Part shown: positions 1 to 63,173 of the stretch, piece by piece
Numbering within the stretch: position 1 is the first letter of the stretch
Layout of the letters: the number at the start of each line of letters is the position of its first letter
IMG/VR virus record: IMGVR_UViG_3300028284_000001
Length of the DNA: 64,000 nt
Source: a virus
Strand: one strand, 5' to 3'
Translations under genes and position numbers: made by a program
Notes under the pieces: model-generated
What the model was told of the DNA's origin: nothing
Database searches by the model: none
Seen by the model: the letters and a program-made list of their open reading frames with translations, nothing else

Positions 1-733
1 TCTCTTTAGTTTCTTTATTAAATCTTTCTAATACAAATGTTTGTAATGTTTTTCCATCATGTATATTAATAATAAATCCTGCAACTTCTTTAGAAAGATC
101 GTTCATTAAAGTAGATTGCTTTAAGTTCTCATTAAAGATTCCATAAACACTTCTTGTAAAATTAGGTCTATCTTTATTTTCATACTTATCCGTATATTCA
201 TTAATACTAGTAGATAACATTTCTTTAAGACCGTCCTTTTGACCTGAATGTAAAAAGCCTTCAAAAATAACTGGAGGTCTTTGTACTTCTAAAAGATCTG
301 CCCATTTATTTAATATTTTAGTATCTCTAATTACTTTTCTAACTTTATTAGGATTAGATGGTTGTAATACTTGGATATGTGTTAACACTAAATTAGATTT
401 AGGTAGTACATCATATTCAATATCAATAGTTTTGTTATCTCCTAAATATTCAAAACCAAACTTCCAATCAAATGGCATTTCTTCTACAGAATCAGAAGCA
501 ACTGTTTTAAAGTGTCTAATTGCATTTTCGTAGTATCTTACAATAGTACGATCTACTACATTCATCTTATCTTTAGAACCTGATTTATAGAATGCAAATT
601 CAGAACCTTCTCTTTTAGCGTGAAAAGATGAACCATCAATTTTTTCTGTTACAACACATTTGTTTGATAACAGTTTATCAATGTCATTAATATTAGATCC
701 TTCAAAATATGTTTTTAAATTCTGTAGTGCCAT
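1..733 (-). CDS. RNA-ligase-like nucleotidyltransferase (Rnl2/ATP-dependent ligase fold), runs off the window edge
   Basis: Not in ORF track; my translation from ATG at 733 gives MALQNLKTYFEG...CVVTEKIDGSSFH...KFGFEY, with ligase motif I KxDG. ATG overlaps the TAA of the upstream gene. Confidence 0.7.
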   Translation of the reverse strand, partial: MALQNLKTYFEGSNINDIDKLLSNKCVVTEKIDGSSFHAKREGSEFAFYKSGSKDKMNVVDRTIVRYYENAIRHFKTVASDSVEEMPFDWKFGFEYLGDNKTIDIEYDVLPKSNLVLTHIQVLQPSNPNKVRKVIRDTKILNKWADLLEVQRPPVIFEGFLHSGQKDGLKEMLSTSINEYTDKYENKDRPNFTRSVYGIFNENLKQSTLMNDLSKEVAGFIINIHDGKTLQTFVLERFNKETKE

Positions 734-2004
734 TATCTTCCGTATTTTATGATACCCATTAGCTGGTTAATCGCAGCAAAAGTACCGGTTAGTTTAAAGG
801 TTTTTCCTTTAAATTTAAAGACCACTCCTTCTGTTGGGATGATCGACTCAATACCACCAATTCCCTCTAGTCTTTTTAGTTCTTTTTCAACCTTTGCAAT
901 TTGAGTAAGGTCGCCATTCTTTTTAATCTTGCCAGCTTCAGTTCTAATCTGATTATGTAATCTTGCTTTTTCAGCATCTGGATTAGCAGCTACAAAATTA
1001 GAAGCGTTCTTTAAAACATCTGCACCTAACTCTAAAAATAGATTCTCAAAAGGTAAAATGTTTTCTTTATACTTCTTATTTCTTTGACCATCAAAATCTT
1101 TAACAGCCTTATTTTGTTCCGGTGTTAATTCCTTCTTTAATGCAGTTAACTTAAGCGTCTGCTTATCTAAGTAAGCCCATCTTAAAAGTAAACCCTCTTT
1201 GTGTGCAGGTTCTAAGTCTGCAAAGTTCTCTTCGATTTGGCCTCTCCACCACATCTCGTGATACATTTTAACCTCATCAGTATCTGATAGACTATAAGTA
1301 TCTCTTAGTTTATTTATCGCCTTTTCGTAATAGCCTACTCTATCATCAAAGTTAATGTCTTTTCCTAACTTTAAAATTTGAGGGGGAATTATTGTAAACG
1401 TCTTTTGAACATCTGACTTTAATTCTTTAAGAGCTTTAACTAGTTCTGTAGCAATATTTTGTTTTCCAGTTTGATTACCTTCACCATCAGTCTCTACAAT
1501 ACCATGAAATTGTATAACATCTCTGTCATAATAGATAACATTAGGGTTTTTAGAGTAAATTAGTTCCATGTTAACGAAATTTAATCCGTTCGCGAACATT
1601 GATTGGTCCTTAAGCGCTGGGAGCGCCGCTGCTAGATCTTTAGCAGCAAAGATATATGTTTCTTCAACCAGCTGTGAGGCATGACCAGTGAACATCGTAA
1701 TGATGCCTGCTAGATCAAGTGGGTTTATCATTTGCCCCTTATTTCTGGCAAACATTGCTTGACCATCTTTTACAGTTGCAAATAGGTTTTGACCATCAGT
1801 CTTTTCAGTTGCAGCCTCTTCGAAATCTAGTCCACCCTGTAATGAAGATTTAACAATAGTCTTGAAATCTGCAAAAGTTAATGAGTGGTCATCGAAGGGG
1901 TGCATCATGTGTCCTGCTGCTCCACCTTCAAATACGAAAGAGTCCAAGTTGTTCACTTGGATTTTCTCGTTTAAAAATTCTGTAAAATTAGTGTATATCT
2001 TCAT
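733..2004 (-). CDS. Ligase-fold nucleotidyltransferase (DUF6267-like) with putative capsid-targeting leader
   Basis: GGAAGHMMHPFD, TEKTDGQN (motif I) and C-terminal EGVVFK...FKLTG (motifs IV/V); leader MKIYTNFTEFLNE. Confidence 0.65.
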   Translation of the reverse strand: MKIYTNFTEFLNEKIQVNNLDSFVFEGGAAGHMMHPFDDHSLTFADFKTIVKSSLQGGLDFEEAATEKTDGQNLFATVKDGQAMFARNKGQMINPLDLAGIITMFTGHASQLVEETYIFAAKDLAAALPALKDQSMFANGLNFVNMELIYSKNPNVIYYDRDVIQFHGIVETDGEGNQTGKQNIATELVKALKELKSDVQKTFTIIPPQILKLGKDINFDDRVGYYEKAINKLRDTYSLSDTDEVKMYHEMWWRGQIEENFADLEPAHKEGLLLRWAYLDKQTLKLTALKKELTPEQNKAVKDFDGQRNKKYKENILPFENLFLELGADVLKNASNFVAANPDAEKARLHNQIRTEAGKIKKNGDLTQIAKVEKELKRLEGIGGIESIIPTEGVVFKFKGKTFKLTGTFAAINQLMGIIKYGR

Positions 2005-2024: not shown

Positions 2025-3458
2025 TTATCCTAATGATGCTGTTAATGCACCGACAGCAGCTCCGTAATCGTCACCGTGCTTAGACAATAATCCGTCTACA
2101 ACTTCTTGTGCTTTTTCTTCGTCAAATTTATCACCGAAAGCTTTTCCTAAAACTGAGAAGGCATACTCTTTAAAATCTTCATCAGACTTTACTTCTGCTT
2201 CGTTAGTAGCTTCAGTTTCAGTTTCTTCAGTTGTAGCTTCAGTTTCAGTTTCTTCAGTTGTAGCTTCAGTTTCAGTTTCTTCAGCACCTTCTTCTACAAC
2301 TTCTTCTTCTTTAATAACTGGAAAGTTCTTACCATTAAATTCAAATTCTGCAGCATCTTCTTCAATTGCTTTAGCTCTTGCTGCTAAAAATGCATTGCCT
2401 TCGTTCATTACTGACTCGTTAGCCCATATTAATTCAAATGCATCTACTATTTTTTGTGCTTGTTGAGAATAACCAAATCCATCTAAGAATAAAGCCATAC
2501 CTTCAACAATACCGATACCAGACCATCCTGCAGCGTTAGCTAATCCAGAATAATGATTATCTAATAAACTCATGATTGATTTTTTACCAACTGGAACTTC
2601 TAAACCACCTAGGTTATCGATCTTTACTGAAACAGTAGTAATCTTACCACCAAGTGCTTTACTTACTGGATCTTTATATGAATGGAAGTTAGCGTCTGTT
2701 AAAGATTCTGATAATAAATATCTACAAACTCCTAATAAGAGCTGACCGTCCATTAATGCAGTGTGATTCGTAAAGAATGATTCTAACCATTTAGATACTT
2801 TCTTAGCATCTCTTAAATTACCCTTAGAAGGTTTAAATGATTCATTGATTATCATAGATTCAAATGCTGGGACTAAATCGTAACTATCATAAACATCAAC
2901 CATATACCATTTCTTATCTGTTTCAGAATATAGGTAGATAAATTCAGCTCCACCGTTATTAGCGGCATCTTTTACGAACTTCTCAGTATCTTTCATATCT
3001 CCGTCAGTAGTGGTCTTGTCGCCGTAGAATTTAATATCGTCTACATTTGCTTCTAGACCTGAACCACCCCCTTTCTTCAGTAGAGTGTCTACTGCCTTTC
3101 CATCTTTGTAACCCTTTTTAATTGTAGGTAACATGTGGTCTGGGTAACCATCATAGTGCATATACACTGTTGAGATTTTTCCGTTCTTTTTGATTTTACC
3201 GATTTGTGATCTTGTACCCTCTTCAATGATCGCTATTGATTCTGATATTTCAGAACTACCTAACTTTTGATAGAATGTATGTCTGTCTTCTTCTTTAAGT
3301 TCTTTAATAGAAGTTACTCCGAACTCTCCAAGTAGATTTTTAAACTGATCTGCAGCTACATTTCTTGCAGCTGATTGTTCTTCTTCTAATTTAGCGTTAG
3401 CTAGCTTTTTAGCACCATGTGCAAAATCTTCAAAAGATTGTAATTTTAATGATCCCAT
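2025..3458 (-). CDS. Multi-domain putative internal head polyprotein
   Basis: Domains GTRSQIG..YMHYDGYP, GNAFLAARAKA..FEFNGK and others separated by IIEE / IINE / VMNE / TNE; late motif upstream at 3493-3501. Confidence 0.6.
   Translation of the reverse strand: MGSLKLQSFEDFAHGAKKLANAKLEEEQSAARNVAADQFKNLLGEFGVTSIKELKEEDRHTFYQKLGSSEISESIAIIEEGTRSQIGKIKKNGKISTVYMHYDGYPDHMLPTIKKGYKDGKAVDTLLKKGGGSGLEANVDDIKFYGDKTTTDGDMKDTEKFVKDAANNGGAEFIYLYSETDKKWYMVDVYDSYDLVPAFESMIINESFKPSKGNLRDAKKVSKWLESFFTNHTALMDGQLLLGVCRYLLSESLTDANFHSYKDPVSKALGGKITTVSVKIDNLGGLEVPVGKKSIMSLLDNHYSGLANAAGWSGIGIVEGMALFLDGFGYSQQAQKIVDAFELIWANESVMNEGNAFLAARAKAIEEDAAEFEFNGKNFPVIKEEEVVEEGAEETETEATTEETETEATTEETETEATNEAEVKSDEDFKEYAFSVLGKAFGDKFDEEKAQEVVDGLLSKHGDDYGAAVGALTASLG
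2206..2284 (-). repeat. 27-bp coding tandem repeat, ~3 copies (TEETETEAT)
   Basis: gtagcttcagtttcagtttcttcagtt units start at 2206, 2233 and 2260. Confidence 0.9.
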
Positions 3459-9227: not shown

Positions 9228-9605
9228 TTAGATTCTTTTACCCATCGCAGCACCTAAAGCAGCACCGACTAATCTGGAGGTTAATAAATCGTAAAAGATA
9301 CCTTTTTGAATACCTAGTACTTTACAAATAACTTTACCAACTGATTTACCTAAAGCAAATCCAGCTAAACCACCAAAGATAGAACCTAAAAGACCTTCAT
9401 TCATAAAAGCTTCTTCTAATTTGTCTAATTCAAATGTACCATCTTCTTTTTGGTATTGTTGTACAAATTGCTCTAATGCAAAATCTACTTTATCTTCTAA
9501 GTCTTGCGACCATTCTTGTTGAAGCCCTTCTTGTAAAAGTTTCATATCAGTGTCAGTTAGCTTTTGCTCAACTAAGTACTGGTTAAATGTTTTAGTATCT
9601 TTCAT
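9228..9605 (-). CDS. Putative virion-internal protein with C-terminal glycine-zipper helices
   Basis: Leader MKDTKTFNQYLVE; MNE followed by GLLGSIFGGLAGFALG...LVGAALGAAMG; late motif 9609-9617. Confidence 0.6.
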   Translation of the reverse strand: MKDTKTFNQYLVEQKLTDTDMKLLQEGLQQEWSQDLEDKVDFALEQFVQQYQKEDGTFELDKLEEAFMNEGLLGSIFGGLAGFALGKSVGKVICKVLGIQKGIFYDLLTSRLVGAALGAAMGKRI

Positions 9606-53341: not shown

Positions 53342-53971
53342 TTAAAACTCAAATGGGATATAATCATCATCTTTATCCATACCGTACCAGACACCTTTGT
53401 TTTGCCAGTAGATCCATCCATACTTATCGTCGATAACTACTTCAAACTTACCCTTTGGCATCTCCACGCTCTTCTTAGGAGCCCTGGCGATATGCTTAAG
53501 TACAGGTACACCATCTTCCCATGTTTTCTTAGTAGATCTAGCATCAACTATTGCGCCATCACCAAATCCATGGTGAAATTCAGCACCTTCGATCTCATCA
53601 GCTAATAACATAGTCGGAGTTTTATCTGATTCATTAACTACTGATTCGTTTTCAGGCATTACTCTTTTATACTTAGCTTGTAATTCTTTAAATTCATCTT
53701 TAAGGTTAGAAGAGATTTTCTTCTTAATACCCCAGTTATCTCCAAAGATTAGTGGAGCTACAGCGCCCATACCAGCAGTCTTAACTTGCTTCTCGTATTT
53801 TCTAGCATAAGTAGAGCTATCAAACCAGTCTAATGCAGCCTGAGCCATATCCTTAGATATCTTAACACCTTCTATTTCAGAAGTACTACCTTTAACTACC
53901 ATTTTAAATAGAGTTTTAGCAGGAGCTTGTCTTGCCTCATTTAATTCGTTTATTGACTTGATATATTTCAT
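53342..53971 (-). CDS. Two-domain putative internal head protein
   Basis: Leader MKYIKSINELNE; internal NESVVNE linker. Confidence 0.65.
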   Translation of the reverse strand: MKYIKSINELNEARQAPAKTLFKMVVKGSTSEIEGVKISKDMAQAALDWFDSSTYARKYEKQVKTAGMGAVAPLIFGDNWGIKKKISSNLKDEFKELQAKYKRVMPENESVVNESDKTPTMLLADEIEGAEFHHGFGDGAIVDARSTKKTWEDGVPVLKHIARAPKKSVEMPKGKFEVVIDDKYGWIYWQNKGVWYGMDKDDDYIPFEF

Positions 53972-53978
53972 AATTATA

Positions 53979-54656
53979 TTATTCTTTTCCAGCTCCCCAA
54001 GCTTCTTTTAATTCTTCAATCTTTTTAGAATAAGATTCTTTCATCTCATTACAGATTGCTTCATACATTTCTTGAGTCATATCTTCATCTTTAACTTCAC
54101 CATAACCTTCTTCCATTGCAGTTGCAGCAAGAGTAGCTACAAGTGCAGCATTTTCTTTCATATACATTTCTAAAGTATGATCTTGGTATTCATCTTTTTC
54201 ATAAGCACATGCAGCTTCAGAAACTTTACCATAACCTTCTGATAACATTTCTTCTACTGTAGCAGATGTTTCAGCAGGAGCAGCAGGCTCTTCAGCTTCT
54301 ACTTCTTCAGCTTCTTCAGAATCATCTTCATCATCTTCATCATCAGAATCATCTTCGTCATCAGAATCATCTTCATCATCGTCATCATCAGAATCTTCAG
54401 CAGCAGGCTCTTCAGCTTCTACTTCATCAGAATCTTCATCTTCTACTTCATCAGAATCTTCATCTTCTACTTCATCAGAATCTTCATCTTCTATTTGTTC
54501 GTCAGGTAATTCAGACGTTTCTTCGCATTCTATGCAGTTACCCTCTTCGTCGGTACCACATGGACACTCTTCGTTCTCTTCTTCAGAGATTTCATTTTTA
54601 GCATCTGCTTTTATAGTTTCAGAATACTCTTGAAATGATAATATTTTTTTAGCCAT
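53979..54656 (-). CDS. Highly acidic putative scaffold/internal head protein
   Basis: Leader MAKKILSFQEYSE; long D/E tract. Confidence 0.65.
   Translation of the reverse strand: MAKKILSFQEYSETIKADAKNEISEEENEECPCGTDEEGNCIECEETSELPDEQIEDEDSDEVEDEDSDEVEDEDSDEVEAEEPAAEDSDDDDDEDDSDDEDDSDDEDDEDDSEEAEEVEAEEPAAPAETSATVEEMLSEGYGKVSEAACAYEKDEYQDHTLEMYMKENAALVATLAATAMEEGYGEVKDEDMTQEMYEAICNEMKESYSKKIEELKEAWGAGKE
54417..54493 (-). repeat. 24-bp coding tandem repeat, 3 copies (EDEDSDEV)
   Basis: ttctacttcatcagaatcttcatc at 54417, 54441 and 54465. Confidence 0.9.
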
Positions 54657-54682
54657 GTTATATGTTTTTTATATTTATTATT

Positions 54683-55390
54683 TTAATGTGTTATTGTATG
54701 AAAAGGTACATCGATCTTACTGTAGTCTACTAGAATACCTTCTTCAGTATGTCTTAATACATCTTCAAATCCTAGCCTCTGTAAATCATCTACCATTGTA
54801 CCGATAAATGTTCCCTTACCATTTGTTTCGTCTTTATAGTTGAAGTGGTACATTGGAATTCCCATTGCAGATGCCCCTACTAATTTTATATTATCTTTTA
54901 AATGTCTTTCAGATTTACCTTCATACTGTAATTGTGTTCCCTCTTGCTGTACATCCACATTATGAGAATCTCCATCTTGTAGGGAATGAACAATATTACC
55001 AGTGTATGCAATATTTGCATATCTCCATGCCGTATTAGTACCGCCATTACTTGTTACTGTAAAGACAAAATTACCAGTACGAGATACTGTATCTACTGTC
55101 CATGTAGTTGGGTTTATAGACATCCATGACGGCATATTTATATCAGATTCTTGTGGAGTCTGTCCACCGCCGTCTCCTCCCCATTCAAAATATGCACTGT
55201 AGTTACTACCTCCGGCAATTAAGAATTCATGGTCTAAAGTACTAACATTATCAACAGGACTACCTGCAAAATTTATCCAATTAAACCAACTGTCTGCCAT
55301 CGCGTTTCCAGGATATTGATAGTTAAGTATTGTTTTAGTTAACCCATCAGGGCTAACCGCTATTAAGTATTTTATATTTGGATTTGACAT
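54683..55390 (-). CDS. Fibre-like protein with BACON-like domain and C-terminal S74 intramolecular chaperone
   Basis: PSWMSI..FTV..N..R.A.I..V.V.Q; SERHLKDNI..YHFNYK..G.M...VDYSKI. Confidence 0.7.
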   Translation of the reverse strand: MSNPNIKYLIAVSPDGLTKTILNYQYPGNAMADSWFNWINFAGSPVDNVSTLDHEFLIAGGSNYSAYFEWGGDGGGQTPQESDINMPSWMSINPTTWTVDTVSRTGNFVFTVTSNGGTNTAWRYANIAYTGNIVHSLQDGDSHNVDVQQEGTQLQYEGKSERHLKDNIKLVGASAMGIPMYHFNYKDETNGKGTFIGTMVDDLQRLGFEDVLRHTEEGILVDYSKIDVPFHTITH

Positions 55391-55404
55391 CTTGTTATTT
55401 ATTA

Positions 55405-56742
55405 TTAATTTCCACTTCCATCAGTCCATTCTATAGAACCGTCTCCAGCAATAATACCGTTATTAGCATCAGTATCATTCCATGCCGTAGACGTTACAAT
55501 TCCGGTAATTGGATTGTCATTAAGTTGTTGTGTATCATTAGTTGCACCCATTGAATCATTTGACCAGTAAAAAGTTCCCGGTACGTCAACTGCAATTAAT
55601 TCTAGTGTTAAAGAATCCGCCGGACTATTTAAGCCTTGTACTAATATGCTTTGTTGTGGACCTACCATACCAACGCCAGCATTATTCCAACTATATCTTT
55701 TAACATTTCCGGAACTAGTTGGGCTTCCTAGTAAAATAGAATTATTTACATCGTTATATCCAAATTCAAGACCGCCAGAAACTGAATCATCACTAATCAC
55801 AAAGTTTACAGACGATAACAGTGTATTATTACTATCACTATCTGTTGCATCAAAATTAATTACGAAAGTTTCAGGGCCTTCTGTTAAACCATCCGATGAT
55901 ACTTGAATCATTAAACTCGCAGTATTGTTTGTAAATACAAACGGAGATGGGCTTACTTGTGTATCATCATTACCCCAATATGAAGAATTAGATCTTACAA
56001 AATCACCAAAATCAATAAAGCCACCGTTATGTGTAATCGTGGAACCTATTGATGTACCATCAGAGACTGGATTACTAGCATTAATAGTTATAGTAACAAA
56101 AGAATTTCCATCGTTTGTTTCACTAGGGTTTCCATCATTAGCTGGCCCTCCTGTTAATACTACGCTATACAAAGGACCTCCCTGAAATTGCTGAACTACC
56201 AACGTTTCCGGTCCTAAAGTTGTACCAACTCCAGTTCCCTCGGAATTAACAGCATACGCTGTATAATAATAATCGCCAGTCGCGCTGACTGTATGGGATA
56301 AAGTATAACTTCCTAAAGAAGTTCCACCTGCAGCTACTTGTGCGTTTTGAGTATAATCTGAATTTGTTCCTATATAGAAACCTCTTTGTGTAATAGCGTT
56401 ACCATTAATAGAATCAATACTCCCGTTTAAGTCAAGATCATTATTTACAACATTTGTCGCCTGGATTGTTGTAACAGATGGAGATGAATTACCTAAACCA
56501 GATTGAGTAACTGTAAAAGATTCTACAGTAATATTATCGGAATGAGTAACTGTACATGTTGCAGTTCTTTCAGCACCAGGGTTATCTGCAACTAAAAAAT
56601 CCCAAGTATCAGTGTCAACACCGTTACTATCTTGAGCATTTGAAATAGTTATCCAATCAGCATTAGAATCACCAGATTTACTCCATGAATATGAATCATC
56701 TACTGGGAATACTGTGATTGTTTTTTGATGTGTATATGGCAT
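55405..56742 (-). CDS. Virion decoration/adhesin: BACON + FN3-like + Calx-beta-like domains
   Basis: DWITIS..NPGAERTAT; PSVTT..ITQRGF..YYYTAYAVNSEG; DGLTEGPETF; late motif 56763-56771. Confidence 0.7.
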   Translation of the reverse strand: MPYTHQKTITVFPVDDSYSWSKSGDSNADWITISNAQDSNGVDTDTWDFLVADNPGAERTATCTVTHSDNITVESFTVTQSGLGNSSPSVTTIQATNVVNNDLDLNGSIDSINGNAITQRGFYIGTNSDYTQNAQVAAGGTSLGSYTLSHTVSATGDYYYTAYAVNSEGTGVGTTLGPETLVVQQFQGGPLYSVVLTGGPANDGNPSETNDGNSFVTITINASNPVSDGTSIGSTITHNGGFIDFGDFVRSNSSYWGNDDTQVSPSPFVFTNNTASLMIQVSSDGLTEGPETFVINFDATDSDSNNTLLSSVNFVISDDSVSGGLEFGYNDVNNSILLGSPTSSGNVKRYSWNNAGVGMVGPQQSILVQGLNSPADSLTLELIAVDVPGTFYWSNDSMGATNDTQQLNDNPITGIVTSTAWNDTDANNGIIAGDGSIEWTDGSGN

Positions 56743-56785
56743 CTCTTACTTTCTTTGTTTTTTTATATATCTTCCTAATATAGTA

Positions 56786-58837
56786 TTACAGGGTTTCAAT
56801 TGCATTATCTTTCATCCACTTCTCTAGTTTCTCAACAGCAATATTAAATATTTTACTTCTGTTAATAGACATTCCAAATGAATTAAAGTATTCTTTCATC
56901 ATATAGTATGCTGGTTCTATCTCTTCTTTATTAGCAATTCGATCTTGGATATGTTTACTAACCTCATACGCAGCTTCAGCACCTACAAACACAAAAGCAG
57001 TATAACCTGTTAAGTCGTTCCAATGTAGATCTGATAATTTGTAACCTATTTCACCTAGTTCTTTTTTTCTTGCAGCTGTATCGAATTTACGATCTCCCAT
57101 TTGGTTTAACCAAAAAGACATGTAGTTAGATTCTTTACCATACATCTTTTCTACAAATCCTCCAGCAACAAGTTCTTTTATTTTAACTCCAATATACTTA
57201 GGGTATTTAATCTTTCCATACTGCTTAATAAATCTATCGTATTCGTAGTTACCGAAATATTCATTAAGGGTTTTAACAAATCCACTTTTAACAACTACTG
57301 TCTCATTTGCTTTTCTCATATCAATCCAAACTCTAATAATATCTGCATAGTCTTTAGAAGTTAAGCCCTCTTTTTCACCATGTGTAGTTTCACTATTACG
57401 ATCCCACATTTTTTGAGCAAAAGCATCGATGTTACCTTCTTTAAAAGTCATAACAGCTCTTTGAGTACCATTATCTAATAATTGAAATGTTTCTTCTTTT
57501 TCATCATGTGGATCTAATCTCCAACCAGCTGAATTATTAACTCTAATATCTAAACCACTAGAGTTACTATCAACCACAACAGTCCAAGGACCTTCTGATT
57601 GATATGTTTTACCTTTTTTATATTTGATTTTACCTTCATTAACTGATTCTTTAAGACCTAATGCTTTATTAACTAGATCTTCAATCACACTAGAGTAATC
57701 ATCCTTTAAAGCCCATTTAATTGTTTGGCCTTCACTTCTTGCTTTCTTGTTTATCCATTTAAGGTGTGTTGCATCAGTAAGAAAATCAGAAGCTTCTTTT
57801 GCAATTCCTTTTGGATCTATTTTCCATTCATCAATTGTAGTACCAAAGTTATTACCGTATGTAGAACCATTAGTTCTTTTAAGGTTATTGATTCCACCAA
57901 TCTTAATGTATATGTCATTATTAATAGGCATTGCTTCAAAGAAAACTACATCTCTTTCTTCTGGGTTGTTTTCACCAGATACTTGATCGATAGCATAAGT
58001 ACTATGAACTCTCCATGTAGGTTCGCCTTTTACATTGTACGCTGCTGAGTGTGTATCTGCACCGAATTCAGAAGCCTTTAACTTATATGCTTTAGCTTCG
58101 TTAACTGATTCAGTAAATCCTCTTTCTTTAGCATCATTCTTTACCCATTCTCTATCTTTAGATGAAAGCTTTTTAAAATCTTTATCAAATTTATGATGTG
58201 CAATTAATTCATAAACATCTTCTAATTCTACTGACTCGCTAAATAGAGTTTCTCCAGTATTAGACTCAACACTTATTACAGCATTAGGATATTGTTTTTG
58301 TAATTCATTAAATACGGCAGGAACCGCAGCTGGTGTATCAACTAATTCTTGTTTAACAACCATACCACTATTAATTACTACAATACTTACAGGATAACTT
58401 CCTTTCTTTGCAGCTTTATGGATTGCGCCTCTTTTAGCTTCACCTATTGGTTTAATGTACTTCATTTGGTTTGACTCTTTCATAGCGTCTATTTCTTTTG
58501 ATTTTTCAATTGCCCAATCAACACCTTCATCTCCACCCCAGATTAACCAGGCTACGTAGCCTCTGTCTTTCCATGGAGTTGCTTTTAATTCAGGTTTGAT
58601 TGATGAGTTTTTTCTGTGTCTATTGAATGCGGACATTCTTTTAACTGTATCTGTACTAAGGTTTTCACCTTTAGCCAGTTGATGAGCTCTTGCCCAACCT
58701 ACTGGAGTTCCAGCATCAACTTCGTCTCTACCATGTTCCTCTTTCCAGTCAATTGCCTTTTGAGCATTCTTCTTTGCAGCAGCAGGATAGTCATTCCAAG
58801 TATCTTCTTCGTTTAATACAGATTCTATGTACTTCAT
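56786..58837 (-). CDS. Multi-domain putative internal head polyprotein
   Basis: Leader MKYIESVLNE, internal MKYIKPIGE, two ESVNE and one KTLNE linker; first domain GTPVGWARAHQLA..AWLIWGG. Confidence 0.7.
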   Translation of the reverse strand: MKYIESVLNEEDTWNDYPAAAKKNAQKAIDWKEEHGRDEVDAGTPVGWARAHQLAKGENLSTDTVKRMSAFNRHRKNSSIKPELKATPWKDRGYVAWLIWGGDEGVDWAIEKSKEIDAMKESNQMKYIKPIGEAKRGAIHKAAKKGSYPVSIVVINSGMVVKQELVDTPAAVPAVFNELQKQYPNAVISVESNTGETLFSESVELEDVYELIAHHKFDKDFKKLSSKDREWVKNDAKERGFTESVNEAKAYKLKASEFGADTHSAAYNVKGEPTWRVHSTYAIDQVSGENNPEERDVVFFEAMPINNDIYIKIGGINNLKRTNGSTYGNNFGTTIDEWKIDPKGIAKEASDFLTDATHLKWINKKARSEGQTIKWALKDDYSSVIEDLVNKALGLKESVNEGKIKYKKGKTYQSEGPWTVVVDSNSSGLDIRVNNSAGWRLDPHDEKEETFQLLDNGTQRAVMTFKEGNIDAFAQKMWDRNSETTHGEKEGLTSKDYADIIRVWIDMRKANETVVVKSGFVKTLNEYFGNYEYDRFIKQYGKIKYPKYIGVKIKELVAGGFVEKMYGKESNYMSFWLNQMGDRKFDTAARKKELGEIGYKLSDLHWNDLTGYTAFVFVGAEAAYEVSKHIQDRIANKEEIEPAYYMMKEYFNSFGMSINRSKIFNIAVEKLEKWMKDNAIETL

Positions 58838-58840
58838 AGG

Positions 58841-59155
58841 TTATTTATCGCCCTCTTCTTTTTTAGTTTCTTTAGCACTTCTAATCTGAGCTTTCTTAAC
58901 TTCTACATTCTTCTTAATTGATTGCTTTTGAGCTTCAGCCTGCGCAAGTTGTACTTTCATCTTAGCAAGAGTACTTGACATTTTATCAGTAACTTTAGGC
59001 GATTGAGATAACTCTTTAGCCTTATTAGTTTCTTTCTCAATTTTGTCGTACTGTTTAGTAATAACCTTGTTAATCTTTTTAACCTTCTTTTTAATGTTAG
59101 GTTTATTCTTACGATTTTCACTAGTAAAATCTTCAAGTAATTTTATATGCTTCAT
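58841..59155 (-). CDS. Basic coiled-coil protein with MKHIK leader
   Basis: MKHIKLLEDF; Lys-rich. Confidence 0.65.
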   Translation of the reverse strand: MKHIKLLEDFTSENRKNKPNIKKKVKKINKVITKQYDKIEKETNKAKELSQSPKVTDKMSSTLAKMKVQLAQAEAQKQSIKKNVEVKKAQIRSAKETKKEEGDK

Positions 59156-59397
59156 TAGAGTTGAGTTCTTTTGATTTTATTGATCTTAAGATCTACTCTT
59201 AACATCTCCATCTTTAAATCTTCTTTTTGTAAACTAAGATTTAATAATTCATTTTTAACAGGATCCTTTTCATCTCCAAGCTTATCAGTAAGATCCTTCA
59301 TTTTATCATGAGTATCTTTAATCTTACCTTGAAGATCTCTAATCTTAGTATTATACTCAGCCTTGGTAGATTCGTATAGTGGTTTTATATGCTTCAT
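59155..59397 (-). CDS. Small coiled-coil protein with MKHIK leader
   Basis: MKHIKPLYES. Confidence 0.65.
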   Translation of the reverse strand: MKHIKPLYESTKAEYNTKIRDLQGKIKDTHDKMKDLTDKLGDEKDPVKNELLNLSLQKEDLKMEMLRVDLKINKIKRTQL

Positions 59398-60074
59398 AGT
59401 CTAAATCCTAAATGTTTTGCACGAGCTTCCCATTTAACTAGGACTTCTGCTCTTTCTTTACTATTTATCTCCCCCATCTCTTCTTTTGAGTCTAGGTATC
59501 TATTTACAGCATCAATAGTCTTCTCACCTCTCTTCTTAGCCTCAAATCTTAAGCCTTGTAGATTTGCATCAACTTCTTTAGGTAGGAGTAAATAATGCAT
59601 CTTTGGTAACATGCCATTATTAATTAAAGCTCTCATCATATCATCTGGTTCATTAGGTTTACCCTTTCTATAATTACCAATGTCAATACCATCTTGAGTA
59701 ATATGTTCAATCTCATGCCTTAAGACATCTGCTAAAACAAAGTAAATCTCTTCCCAATAAGTAGGTAACCAATCTGGATTACAAGCAAAATCTATATTAA
59801 TAAATGGATCTTGCCAATCACCTTCATCATCTTCATCTCTGCCATCAGCTCCAGTTGAATTTAGGACTTCAAATCCCTTGCCTTTAAAATAAATTGAACA
59901 GTTTAGGTCAAATGTAAGACCTGGGTTCTGTACTTCAAATGAGTAACTAGAAGATTTTTTGCCGTTCTCAAAATCTAATACCCACTGTTTAAAACAATCA
60001 CCTAATAATTTATTAGAGATAGAATCTAGTTTTGTATATCTTTCAAATATAGCCTTTGATTTAATATGCTTCAT
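59394..60074 (-). CDS. Zincin-like metallopeptidase with MKHIK leader
   Basis: HEIEH (HExxH) plus downstream Y..L.KEVDA third-ligand motif; late motif 60078-60086. Confidence 0.7.
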   Translation of the reverse strand: MKHIKSKAIFERYTKLDSISNKLLGDCFKQWVLDFENGKKSSSYSFEVQNPGLTFDLNCSIYFKGKGFEVLNSTGADGRDEDDEGDWQDPFINIDFACNPDWLPTYWEEIYFVLADVLRHEIEHITQDGIDIGNYRKGKPNEPDDMMRALINNGMLPKMHYLLLPKEVDANLQGLRFEAKKRGEKTIDAVNRYLDSKEEMGEINSKERAEVLVKWEARAKHLGFRL

Positions 60075-60090
60075 TTATTATATATCAAAC

Positions 60091-60121
60091 AAAAAAAGGG
60101 ACCTAAATTAATAGATCCCTT
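60091..60121 (-). terminator. Intrinsic terminator
   Basis: AAGGGATCTA-ttaatt-TAGGTCCCTT followed by a T run; lies just before the late promoter. Confidence 0.8.
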
Positions 60122-60154
60122 GCTCCTTAGTTTTTTATCGTCTAGCCTAAATAA

Positions 60155-61582: not shown

Positions 61583-62170
61583 TTATTGGTAATTGTTCCA
61601 GTTTAAAAACTCTCGCCAATCATGTTTTTTAATTAGCTTAGTCCAAAGCATAATATACTTTCTCTCTTTAGGTTTTAGTATATGTCTTGGTTGTTCTAAA
61701 ATTAATCTCGGTTGCTTGTCCGGATTAAAATGTTTATTTAAGGCAATTGACTTAATATGGAAATAAAGCTCTCTAGTAGTTCCATCGAACTCTTCCATTT
61801 CATTCTTAACTATTTCAGGATCTAGATTAAACTCTTCTGCAAGTTTATTCATAATATCTCTTAGTAATAAATGTTCTGCCTTTAAGTGAGCCTCCATCAT
61901 TTTAGTCTTACGCTTATTACGTTGTTTCCTAGCGTCAGCAATTGCCTCTTCTAATGTTTCGTCTTTAAGCCATGGAGACTCCTTTTGTATTCTCTTTACT
62001 TCAGCGTCGTAGATTGAATCTTCTAAGTAGATTTCTCTACCTAAGCTATTGACTTCAAATTCGCCGAACTCAATTCGCTGTAAGAGTTCGCTTGCTCCTT
62101 TGTAAAGATATTGCTTAGGGATTTTACGTACTCCCCAGAATCTACGCCACCAAGTAAATTGCCTACTCAT
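61583..62170 (-). CDS. Hypothetical protein
   Basis: 195 aa coupled ORF. Confidence 0.7.
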   Translation of the reverse strand: MSRQFTWWRRFWGVRKIPKQYLYKGASELLQRIEFGEFEVNSLGREIYLEDSIYDAEVKRIQKESPWLKDETLEEAIADARKQRNKRKTKMMEAHLKAEHLLLRDIMNKLAEEFNLDPEIVKNEMEEFDGTTRELYFHIKSIALNKHFNPDKQPRLILEQPRHILKPKERKYIMLWTKLIKKHDWREFLNWNNYQ

Positions 62171-62358
62171 TATATTCGATCTAGTTCTGAAATTAATTCT
62201 TTAATAGAACTGATTGCTAATTCGCATTCATTGTTTTCTGATTCTCCATCTTCTACTTCCATTTCTGCTAGAAAGTATAAGTCTCTAACTTCGTCGTCAA
62301 GTTGTGGGTATTGTTTTGAAATTCCTTCTGCGTACGTTTTAAGATTTGATAATGTCAT
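62170..62358 (-). CDS. Small acidic hypothetical protein
   Basis: 62 aa; ATAAAC-N17-TATAAT upstream. Confidence 0.65.
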   Translation of the reverse strand: MTLSNLKTYAEGISKQYPQLDDEVRDLYFLAEMEVEDGESENNECELAISSIKELISELDRI

Positions 62359-62410: not shown

Positions 62411-62659
62411 TTATGGTCTGAACCTGCCCAAAGAGCTATTGAATTCGTCTTCCTCTATTTTACGGATTCTGTCTGATTCTTCTCTTGCGTCTGCCCAATC
62501 ATCTGCAAATTTACACATGATTTTCTTTTCTTCATCCAGGAATGTCTTAGCAATAGCGATTGCATATTCCATACCTTGCCAAACTTCCTTTGGACTGTTT
62601 TCTAATTCTTCTTGCATTGCCTCGATCAATAACGAGACTGGTGTTTGTCTTTTACTCAT
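62411..62659 (-). CDS. Small hypothetical protein
   Basis: 82 aa coupled ORF. Confidence 0.65.
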   Translation of the reverse strand: MSKRQTPVSLLIEAMQEELENSPKEVWQGMEYAIAIAKTFLDEEKKIMCKFADDWADAREESDRIRKIEEDEFNSSLGRFRP

Positions 62660-63173
62660 AAGCTGCGGGTGATGTTAAACCAGAATATGCACAGTATTCT
62701 TTCTCGCTGTCATAAACTAGTGTTGCGTTAAACGTTTCGATTAATTTCTTTTCATTAAATCCTGCGTGGCCATGGATTGATTTACCTCCAGTCGCTTTCG
62801 CTTCTAAGACTGGCATGATAACATCAGTCGGTACCTCGTAGATTTTCTTGATGGTAACTCCATCTCTAACGGCAAAGTACATATTATTCGTTTGCGCGTA
62901 TTTTTCAATTTTGTTTTCAGATAACCAATGGAACTGGAAAGTACCAGATTTACCCTTGTTTCTCATGTTGATTGCCTTATATTCTGTAGGCGTTTCAGTG
63001 GCATCTAATGCGTCGCCACCCTGGGTATTGTTACCATACTCATGGCCTAAATGATTTGCCATGAACATCTCTATGAACCTCTCATTATAGAATATATTGT
63101 CAAGTCCTAGTTGATCTTTGGCGATTTGTTCTGCCTCTTGCAGAAGTGATTGTATTTGTTTTATTGCTTCCAT
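62652..63173 (-). CDS. PvuII-like PD-(D/E)xK restriction endonuclease
   Basis: GLDNIF..GGDALD....EYKAIN..IEKY.Q...FA..G..I..IY parallels R.PvuII as I recall it (GINDIF..GNDAVD....ELKSIN..IAKYRQ..FA..G..I..IY); similar length. Confidence 0.65.
   Translation of the reverse strand: MEAIKQIQSLLQEAEQIAKDQLGLDNIFYNERFIEMFMANHLGHEYGNNTQGGDALDATETPTEYKAINMRNKGKSGTFQFHWLSENKIEKYAQTNNMYFAVRDGVTIKKIYEVPTDVIMPVLEAKATGGKSIHGHAGFNEKKLIETFNATLVYDSEKEYCAYSGLTSPAAYE

Follow-up and report, generated by a model that had tools for sequence, protein, structure and literature searches.

Why do late proteins with unrelated bodies begin alike in one phage genome? The question is raised by a viral DNA of 64,000 nucleotides (nt), IMG/VR record IMGVR_UViG_3300028284_000001 (the window in the following), and mainly by its gene block between 60074 and 53342. 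A short N-terminal leader shared by otherwise unrelated proteins is known from phage T4. Its internal proteins IPI, IPII, IPIII and Alt carry a capsid-targeting sequence (CTS), MKTYQEFIAE, that is removed by the prohead protease gp21 (Mullaney and Black, 1996, as reviewed in PMC9026906; PMC3012670; PMC8442874). Based on the results described below, we are fairly confident that the shared N-termini are T4-type capsid-targeting propeptides, which would load unrelated late proteins into the head.

The analysis covered the 56 predicted proteins of the window and a lineage set of 325 proteins, consisting of the window and twelve loci from related IMG/VR contigs. The nine N-termini quoted by an earlier note on this DNA coincide with the starts of minus-strand open reading frames (at 53971, 54656, 58837, 59155, 59397, 60074, 2004, 3458 and 9605). 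An MK[YH]I start is found in five of the 56 window proteins, all five within 53342-60074. The full motif is also present on MKIYTNFTEFLNE (gene 733-2004) and MKDTKTFNQYLVE (gene 9228-9605), and two further proteins have the weaker forms MAKKILSFQEYSE and MGSLKLQSFEDF. In the lineage set, M-[KR]-[YHF]-[ILV] begins 33 of the 325 proteins, whereas it occurs at an internal methionine in only 10 of 1875 cases, three of which are a conserved internal polyprotein leader. A second motif, [FYW]xx[FYW][LIVM]xE, was derived beforehand from the T4 CTS and not from the window. It occurs within the first 20 residues of 15 lineage proteins, compared to an expectation of 0.45 derived from 8 internal occurrences in 80552 positions, an approximately 33-fold enrichment.

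About 15 of the 132 body-homology families in the lineage set are marked by an MK[YHF][ILV] start or the strict motif, so that shared ancestry of a few genes cannot account for the count. Two statements of the earlier note hold here: without their first 16 residues, the nine tagged window proteins gave no mutual BLASTP match at E <= 1e-3, and none of the replication and baseplate proteins of the window carries either form of the motif; its tail proteins lack both forms as well.

The leader consensus, M-K-H-I-K-T-[YF]-x-x-F-[ILV]-[NG]-E, includes the K-T-Y-x-x-F-I-x-E of T4, which is also contained in the typical leader MKHIKTYESFINE. A leader profile was built for the family of the 226-amino-acid (aa) protein with an HExxH motif, for which public data contain 336 relatives at E <= 0.001; the profile comprises 95 distinct sequences with a 13-residue leader among the 120 relatives listed. 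Its information maxima are M1, I4, [YF]7, F10, [ILV]11 and E13, followed by G-R-S. Leader positions 7, 10, 11 and 13 correspond to CTS positions 4, 7, 8 and 10, offset by a three-residue prefix. In T4, genetic analysis showed that positions 4 and 7 matter for targeting and positions 8 and 10 for processing (PMC9026906). The lineage leader is under selection as a protein sequence, with amino acids kept while codons change synonymously. An AlphaFold model of the 226-aa protein from 65 sequences reached a predicted local distance difference test score (pLDDT) of 91 with residues 1-12 disordered, which places the leader outside the fold; an earlier AlphaFold2 model from 6 sequences (pLDDT 56) was too poor for use.

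In a control search, we used a DNA pattern for the 10-residue leader M-x-x-[FY]-x-x-[FY]-h-x-E at an ATG, together with the reversed pattern. The forward pattern matched ipII, ipIII and gp61.1 in T4, two genes in cyanophage S-H38 and two in G012, a 101-kb IMG/VR contig whose proteins are 45-88% identical to those of the window over a collinear stretch of about 57 kb. The reversed pattern gave no match in these three genomes. For the uncultured phage LR756500.1, the leader pattern was not above the reversed control (3 versus 2 matches). The G012 orthologue of the 125-aa tagged protein starts with MRTFNEYLVE and thus equals the T4 CTS in length.

A second line of evidence comes from the module borders of the tagged proteins (a slash marks the candidate cut site). 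Three modules keep an identical first mature residue after the glutamate, regardless of whether they stand behind a leader or an internal linker. The HExxH body follows MKHIKSKAIFE in the window, where it starts with RYTKL. It is found behind ...FVMESKVFE/RYTKL within a 337-aa protein in the relatives L001-L003, behind MKHIKAYESFINE/GRS in L006 and L007, and behind ...KKVMAE/GRYD within a 907-aa protein of Flavobacterium phage immuto. The first module of the 683-aa polyprotein reads MKYIESVLNE/EDTW in the window and ...ESVLNE/ED or ...ESVINE/ED in the polyproteins of L003-L006, and is a separate gene with its own leader in L007. The third case is the C-module of the 209-aa protein, which follows ...ESVVNE/SDKTPT in the window. 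Orthologues of this protein begin with MKYIKPLNE/ARQAPAK, and G012 has the C-module alone behind a leader, MKHIKPLNE...KAVHE/SDKTPT.

In the tagged window proteins (2552 residues), the linker pattern E[ST][VILF]x(0-1)NE is present at five places, and it is absent from the 17485 untagged residues. The candidate cut sites sit at module borders instead of being spread through the modules. Relatives of the polyprotein, 466-1247 aa long, have its modules shuffled, and in L007 these appear as separate tagged genes. Outside the lineage, the first polyprotein module was detected inside the "prohead protease" of halovirus HGTV-1 and as the N-terminal part of a capsid fusion protein in Roseobacter phage CRP-701. 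Its presence within head-morphogenesis fusions of unrelated haloviruses and roseophages fits a location inside the head. At aa 125-133 of the window polyprotein (58439-58465), we observed a leader-like stretch led by methionine, QMKYIKPIGE/AKRG, which is conserved in L002 and L006 and may go back to a gene fusion or serve as an internal start.

Head genes were not found in the 64,000-nt window, and the head machinery was therefore followed in relatives. G012 encodes a portal (Portal_T4, 245.6 bits), a capsid protein of the Gp23 family (160.5 bits) and, at 88742-90928, a 728-aa fusion of a Peptidase_S77 protease and an acidic scaffold-like region (PF03420, 47.7-50.6 bits at a cut-off of 27). 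The protease keeps the histidine and serine in the stretches GELDHP and SSRAAG, which align with T4 gp21 (PDB 5JBL) in a more distant relative. The scaffold-like part is long, acidic and repeat-rich, and the versions of the fusion in relatives measure 583-635 aa. The capsid protein starts with MANLINE-AEIRNTWAPIIE-EATGINE, and the I-I-E and I-N-E sites of this propeptide align with L-L-E and L-P-E of T4 gp23. In T4, the core proteins gp67 and gp68 are encoded between portal and protease. G012 has a 112-aa tagged protein starting with MKIIKTFEEFIQE at this position, and another of its proteins shows the leader-like start MLNTNKIKLFEEFSAGE. The portal-protease-capsid order is kept in the more distant relatives G006 and LR756500.1, with tagged genes on both sides. 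A comparison of the head-module loci of distant relatives with the window for shared proteins yielded only one module match (50-53%), and PF03420 was not found in eight shorter lineage contigs (G001-G005, G013-G015), which are fragments of 12-30% completeness.

The window contains 20 copies of GATAWATA, 19 of them on the gene strand; 12 are intergenic and located just upstream of genes, five exactly 12 nt before the ATG. The T4 late promoter, TATAAATA, resembles this sequence. GATAWATA is a late-promoter-like motif, and the tagged genes may belong to the late class. In the test of co-occurrence between tag and motif that the earlier note had proposed, all nine tagged genes were in GATAWATA-headed units, likewise the baseplate, tail-fibre and S1-like genes, and no replication gene of the window is headed by GATAWATA or tagged. 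The likeness to the T4 CTS, which the same note had drawn, was borne out on every point that sequence can address, namely consensus, conserved positions, lineage head genes and late-type motifs.

Within the cargo block, which runs from 60074 to 53342 and includes two untagged members, the gaps between genes range from -4 to 43 nt. A terminator-like hairpin with a T-run (60087-60140) lies directly before GATATATA of the cargo operon, which suggests that the operon is a separate late transcription unit. Upstream of the block, three small genes without GATAWATA (62170-62358, 62411-62659 and 62652-63173) have the weak leader-like starts MTLSNLKTYAEG, MSKRQTPVSLLIE and MEAIKQIQSLLQE, which may be a weak tag or coincidence.

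In the mechanism that we propose, unrelated proteins would be made late in infection, each with an unstructured leader of 9-13 residues and the consensus M-K-[HY]-I-K-x-[FY]-x-x-F-[ILV]-[NG]-E or a shorter form such as MKYIKPLNE. The leader would dock the protein onto the scaffolding core during prohead assembly. A gp21-type serine protease (Peptidase_S77, fused to the scaffold) would then cut after the glutamate of hydrophobic-x-Glu, and the same enzyme would cut the ES[VI]xNE linkers and free the modules of the polyproteins. The mature pieces would remain in the head, among them a candidate zincin, the pair of basic coiled proteins, the modules of the polyproteins and the 423-aa tagged protein, and at least some of them would probably exit with the DNA at infection. 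For core binding, cleavage, head retention and ejection, T4 serves as the analogy.

Several observations weigh against this explanation. Cleavage and packaging are, for this phage, deduced from sequence, and the S77 protease was seen in the collinear relative G012 and not in the window's own genome. Several window leaders are off consensus, such as MKHIKSKAIFE, MKHIKPLYE and MGSLKLQSFEDF, the latter without a Glu site. The 225-aa acidic protein has no conserved cleavage site after MAKKILSFEEY, and the 337-aa relatives of the HExxH protein begin with MNTFTG... and show no clear leader. Some tagged proteins may also be core or scaffold parts that are degraded and not delivered, the acidic 225-aa protein being the clearest candidate.

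The latter point leads to the alternative that survives best. It regards leaders and linkers in general as prohead-protease sites on core or scaffold parts, which are cut and expelled during assembly with nothing functional being delivered. It would account for the net charge of -81 of the 225-aa tagged protein, for the long acidic repeats in the scaffold part of the G012 protease, and for the small tagged protein of G012 in the place of gp67 and gp68. However, conserved folded domains bearing enzyme-like motifs make up many of the tagged bodies, as judged from the invariant HExxH motif and the pLDDT of 91 in one family and from 85% identity between window and G012 for the 423-aa protein. The confinement of candidate cut sites to module borders also argues against it, and T4 uses such a leader on proteins that are kept in the head and ejected (PMC3012670, PMC8442874). 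We consider this alternative unlikely.

Far less probable is an artefact at the nucleotide level or of gene history, that is, a translation-initiation or mRNA element, or leftover homology from duplication or recombination cassettes. The genome is AT-rich and lacks Shine-Dalgarno sequences, 11 of the 56 window proteins start with MK, and the modules are clearly shuffled at leader and linker sites, so that conserved DNA could aid recombination. Yet among 19 distinct DNA sequences for the 209-aa family and 30 for the acidic one, synonymous codon variation within the leaders is about the same as downstream while the amino acids are fixed, which rules out the reading as a translation or mRNA leader. 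In the acidic protein, no change is seen at residues 1-8, 10 and 11, glutamate occupies residue 9 in 90% of the 30 distinct DNA sequences, and residues 12-22 are variable. Furthermore, the conserved positions are hydrophobic and glutamate residues 7-13 codons past the start, the motif recurs inside polyproteins far from start codons, and structural and replication genes with equally AT-rich starts do not have it.

We give just as little credit to a leader that addresses the membrane, secretion or another phage-built compartment: large phages can have protein-sorting systems, but the leader is short, charged and too little hydrophobic for a signal peptide, a reading that its composition rules out, residue by residue it agrees with the capsid signal of T4, and the capsid protein of the lineage itself starts with a similar site, MANLINE.

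The features on which the reading as capsid-targeting propeptides is based are compiled in Table 1.

Table 1. Tagged genes, untagged members of the cargo block and late-promoter-like motifs in the window.
Feature	Position	Strand	Details
Late-promoter-like motif GATATATA	60079..60086	-	12 nt upstream of first cargo gene ATG
226-aa tagged HExxH protein	59394..60074	-	Leader MKHIKSKAIFE, 60042-60074; mature start RYTKL
80-aa basic coiled protein	59155..59397	-	Isoelectric point (pI) 9.3; leader MKHIKPLYE; start overlaps upstream gene
104-aa very basic coiled protein	58841..59155	-	pI 10.0; leader MKHIKLLEDFTSE, 59117-59155
Late-promoter-like motif GATAAATA	58842..58849	-	12 nt upstream of polyprotein ATG
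683-aa cargo polyprotein (putative)	56786..58837	-	Leader MKYIESVLNE, 58808-58837
Internal sites of 683-aa polyprotein	58439-58465; 58097-58111, 57635-57649		Leader-like MKYIKPIGE; ESVNE linkers
445-aa untagged acidic BACON-domain protein	55405..56742	-	In cargo late unit
235-aa untagged protein	54683..55390	-	Weak below-cutoff C-terminal match to Peptidase_S74 chaperone domain
225-aa extremely acidic protein	53979..54656	-	Net charge -81; leader MAKKILSFQEY(SE), 54618-54656
209-aa two-module tagged protein	53342..53971	-	Leader MKYIKSINELNE, 53936-53971; linker ESVVNE, 53630-53647
125-aa tagged protein	9228..9605	-	Leader MKDTKTFNQYLVE, 9567-9605; GATATATA at -12
477-aa tagged polyprotein	2025..3458	-	Degenerate leader MGSLKLQSFEDF, 3423-3458; internal ESVMNE linker
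423-aa tagged protein	733..2004	-	Leader MKIYTNFTEFLNE, 1966-2004

Most of the tagged window proteins have no match in Pfam or PHROGs. Of the cargo labels in the earlier note, the analysis covered the metalloprotease and the basic coils. For the 226-aa protein, one part of the former label stood: the HExxH motif is invariant (H120, E121 and H124 in 65 sequences). The support for a zincin fold turned out to be weak. The protein has no Pfam match, a Foldseek search of the model against the PDB gave no match at E <= 0.001, and a wide VIA-align search gave weak matches with a best Z of 4.8, although most of its top rows were zincin peptidases. Because of the missing Foldseek match and VIA-align Z values not above 4.8, we call the protein a zincin only tentatively. 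In the cultured Flavobacterium phage immuto (NC_055915.1, 107131-109854), the 907-aa protein is annotated as NMN adenylyltransferase and contains two HExxH modules, the last of which is homologous to the window protein.

The basic coils of the earlier note were recovered as the 80-aa and 104-aa proteins. Orthologous leaders of the former read MRHIKPMYE and MRHLKQFKNFLNE, whereas orthologues of the latter read MKHIKLFEDFIIE and MKHIKIFEDFLNE; in L006, the 104-aa protein is the first module of a polyprotein. The acidic protein (53979-54656) contains three tandem DEDSDEVE repeats and long D/E runs. Among relatives, its length and its sequence past residue 11 vary strongly and the C-terminal 90 residues are conserved.

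As for the two untagged members of the block, the 445-aa BACON-domain protein is probably an external or decoration protein and the 235-aa protein probably fibre-like, neither being cargo. The untagged cargo-block proteins (55405-56742 and its equivalents in L001-L005) share the N-terminus M-[PA]-x-T-[HY]-x-K-T-[VI] of the BACON domain and occur in one to four copies per relative. These BACON-type proteins may be external decoration or fibre proteins.

The source of the window is a large uncultured marine phage related to T4. The window has a G+C content of 33-38%, carries nearly every gene on the minus strand and shows Shine-Dalgarno sequences in none of them. Its T4-like replication set consists of a helicase, a primase and a single-strand binding protein of the gp32 type. 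A long block is devoted to baseplate and tail fibres, with a wedge protein of the gp6/J type and a hub that carries an OB domain of the gp5 type, and there are also genes for a dCMP deaminase and a further helicase. The helicase shares 55% identity with its counterpart in the 462-kb phage LR756500.1 and about 34% with those of Lak megaphages and T4-like cyanophages. A megablast search of public phage records revealed no close relative at the DNA level, and exact 42-mer searches of viral and metagenome contigs revealed no copy of the window. Metagenome contigs of the lineage reach 254 kb. The host is probably a member of the Flavobacteriia, as suggested by the BACON domain, a relative labelled Flavobacteriales and the phage immuto.

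How does this system compare to known ones? As with the T4 CTS, a short N-terminal leader stands on unrelated late proteins, the spacing of K-T-[YF]-x-x-F-[IL]-x-E is equal and a glutamate ends the leader. The lineage also shares with T4 an S77 protease, a gp20 portal and, with its propeptide, a gp23 capsid protein, and in both the cargo set differs between close relatives. Unlike in T4, the usual leader is three residues longer owing to the MKHI prefix, and forms of 6-9 residues exist too. There are about 15 tagged families in partial genomes, known here through their sequences alone. The protease forms a fusion with a scaffold, and the likely host belongs to the Flavobacteriia. Polyproteins whose modules are linked by ES[VI]xNE and which reach 1247 aa are a further trait of the lineage; we know of no multi-module cargo polyproteins with linkers from T4.

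A second group for comparison are phiKZ, 201phi2-1 and SPN3US, whose inner-body or ejection proteins mostly have propeptides of more than 100 residues with the motif [SAG]-x-E or A-x-E (PMC5694885, PMC7411985, PMC10052503). These large phages have many head-internal proteins and a T4-related protease that cuts after glutamate, as proposed for the window lineage, and some of the phiKZ-group substrates are cut more than once. The lineage leaders differ from theirs in having 9-13 residues and L, I, V or F at P3, as in T4. Long propeptides of the phiKZ type are ruled out by this length and by a P3 other than [SAG].

Leaders of the T4 type may be a general trait of the T4 superfamily. In cyanophage S-H38 (Kyanoviridae, NC_070964), gp082 starts with MKTYKQFLNE and gp014 with MKSYKEFLSE (at 128689 and 176236). 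The former is a hypothetical protein encoded between the small terminase and a virion protein, the latter is annotated as 'cytitidyltransferase'. S-H38 differs from the window lineage in having only two CTS-like starts per genome instead of many. In T4 itself, gp61.1 (NC_000866, 18966-19130), a 54-aa hypothetical protein encoded beside the primase gene, starts with MKTFKEFIKE and is as good a match to the CTS pattern as ipII and ipIII.

The CTS principle is already known in T-even phages (PMC3012670, PMC9026906). Within the library searched, we found no paper that extends it beyond T-even phages to cyanophages, jumbo phages or metagenomic phages. The new elements are the longer leader, how many families are tagged, polyproteins that contain ES[VI]xNE linkers, and a host that probably belongs to the Flavobacteriia. 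We see about even chances that K-T-[YF]-x-x-F-[IL]-x-E is an address code of the whole T4 superfamily, spanning coliphages, cyanophages and large marine Flavobacteria phages, and used here to load at least about 15 families including polyproteins split by the protease. If this is true, these phages would inject a pre-packaged enzyme kit far larger than that of T4, and the injected proteome of uncultured T4-like phages would be predictable from metagenomes alone.

Phage proteins that are injected together with the DNA act before phage gene expression, and the T4 examples serve in counter-defence, e.g. IPI against a restriction enzyme. With a leader readable from sequence, such proteins could be identified in uncultured marine phages, which are abundant, and virion proteomics would not be needed; dozens of uncharacterised candidates for anti-defence or takeover functions would come into view. 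The layout of the polyproteins suggests a way in which one tag may load several modules in fixed ratios. Immuto, as a cultured phage, could become the experimental system, and the conserved leader could be used as a packaging tag for the engineering of Bacteroidota phages.

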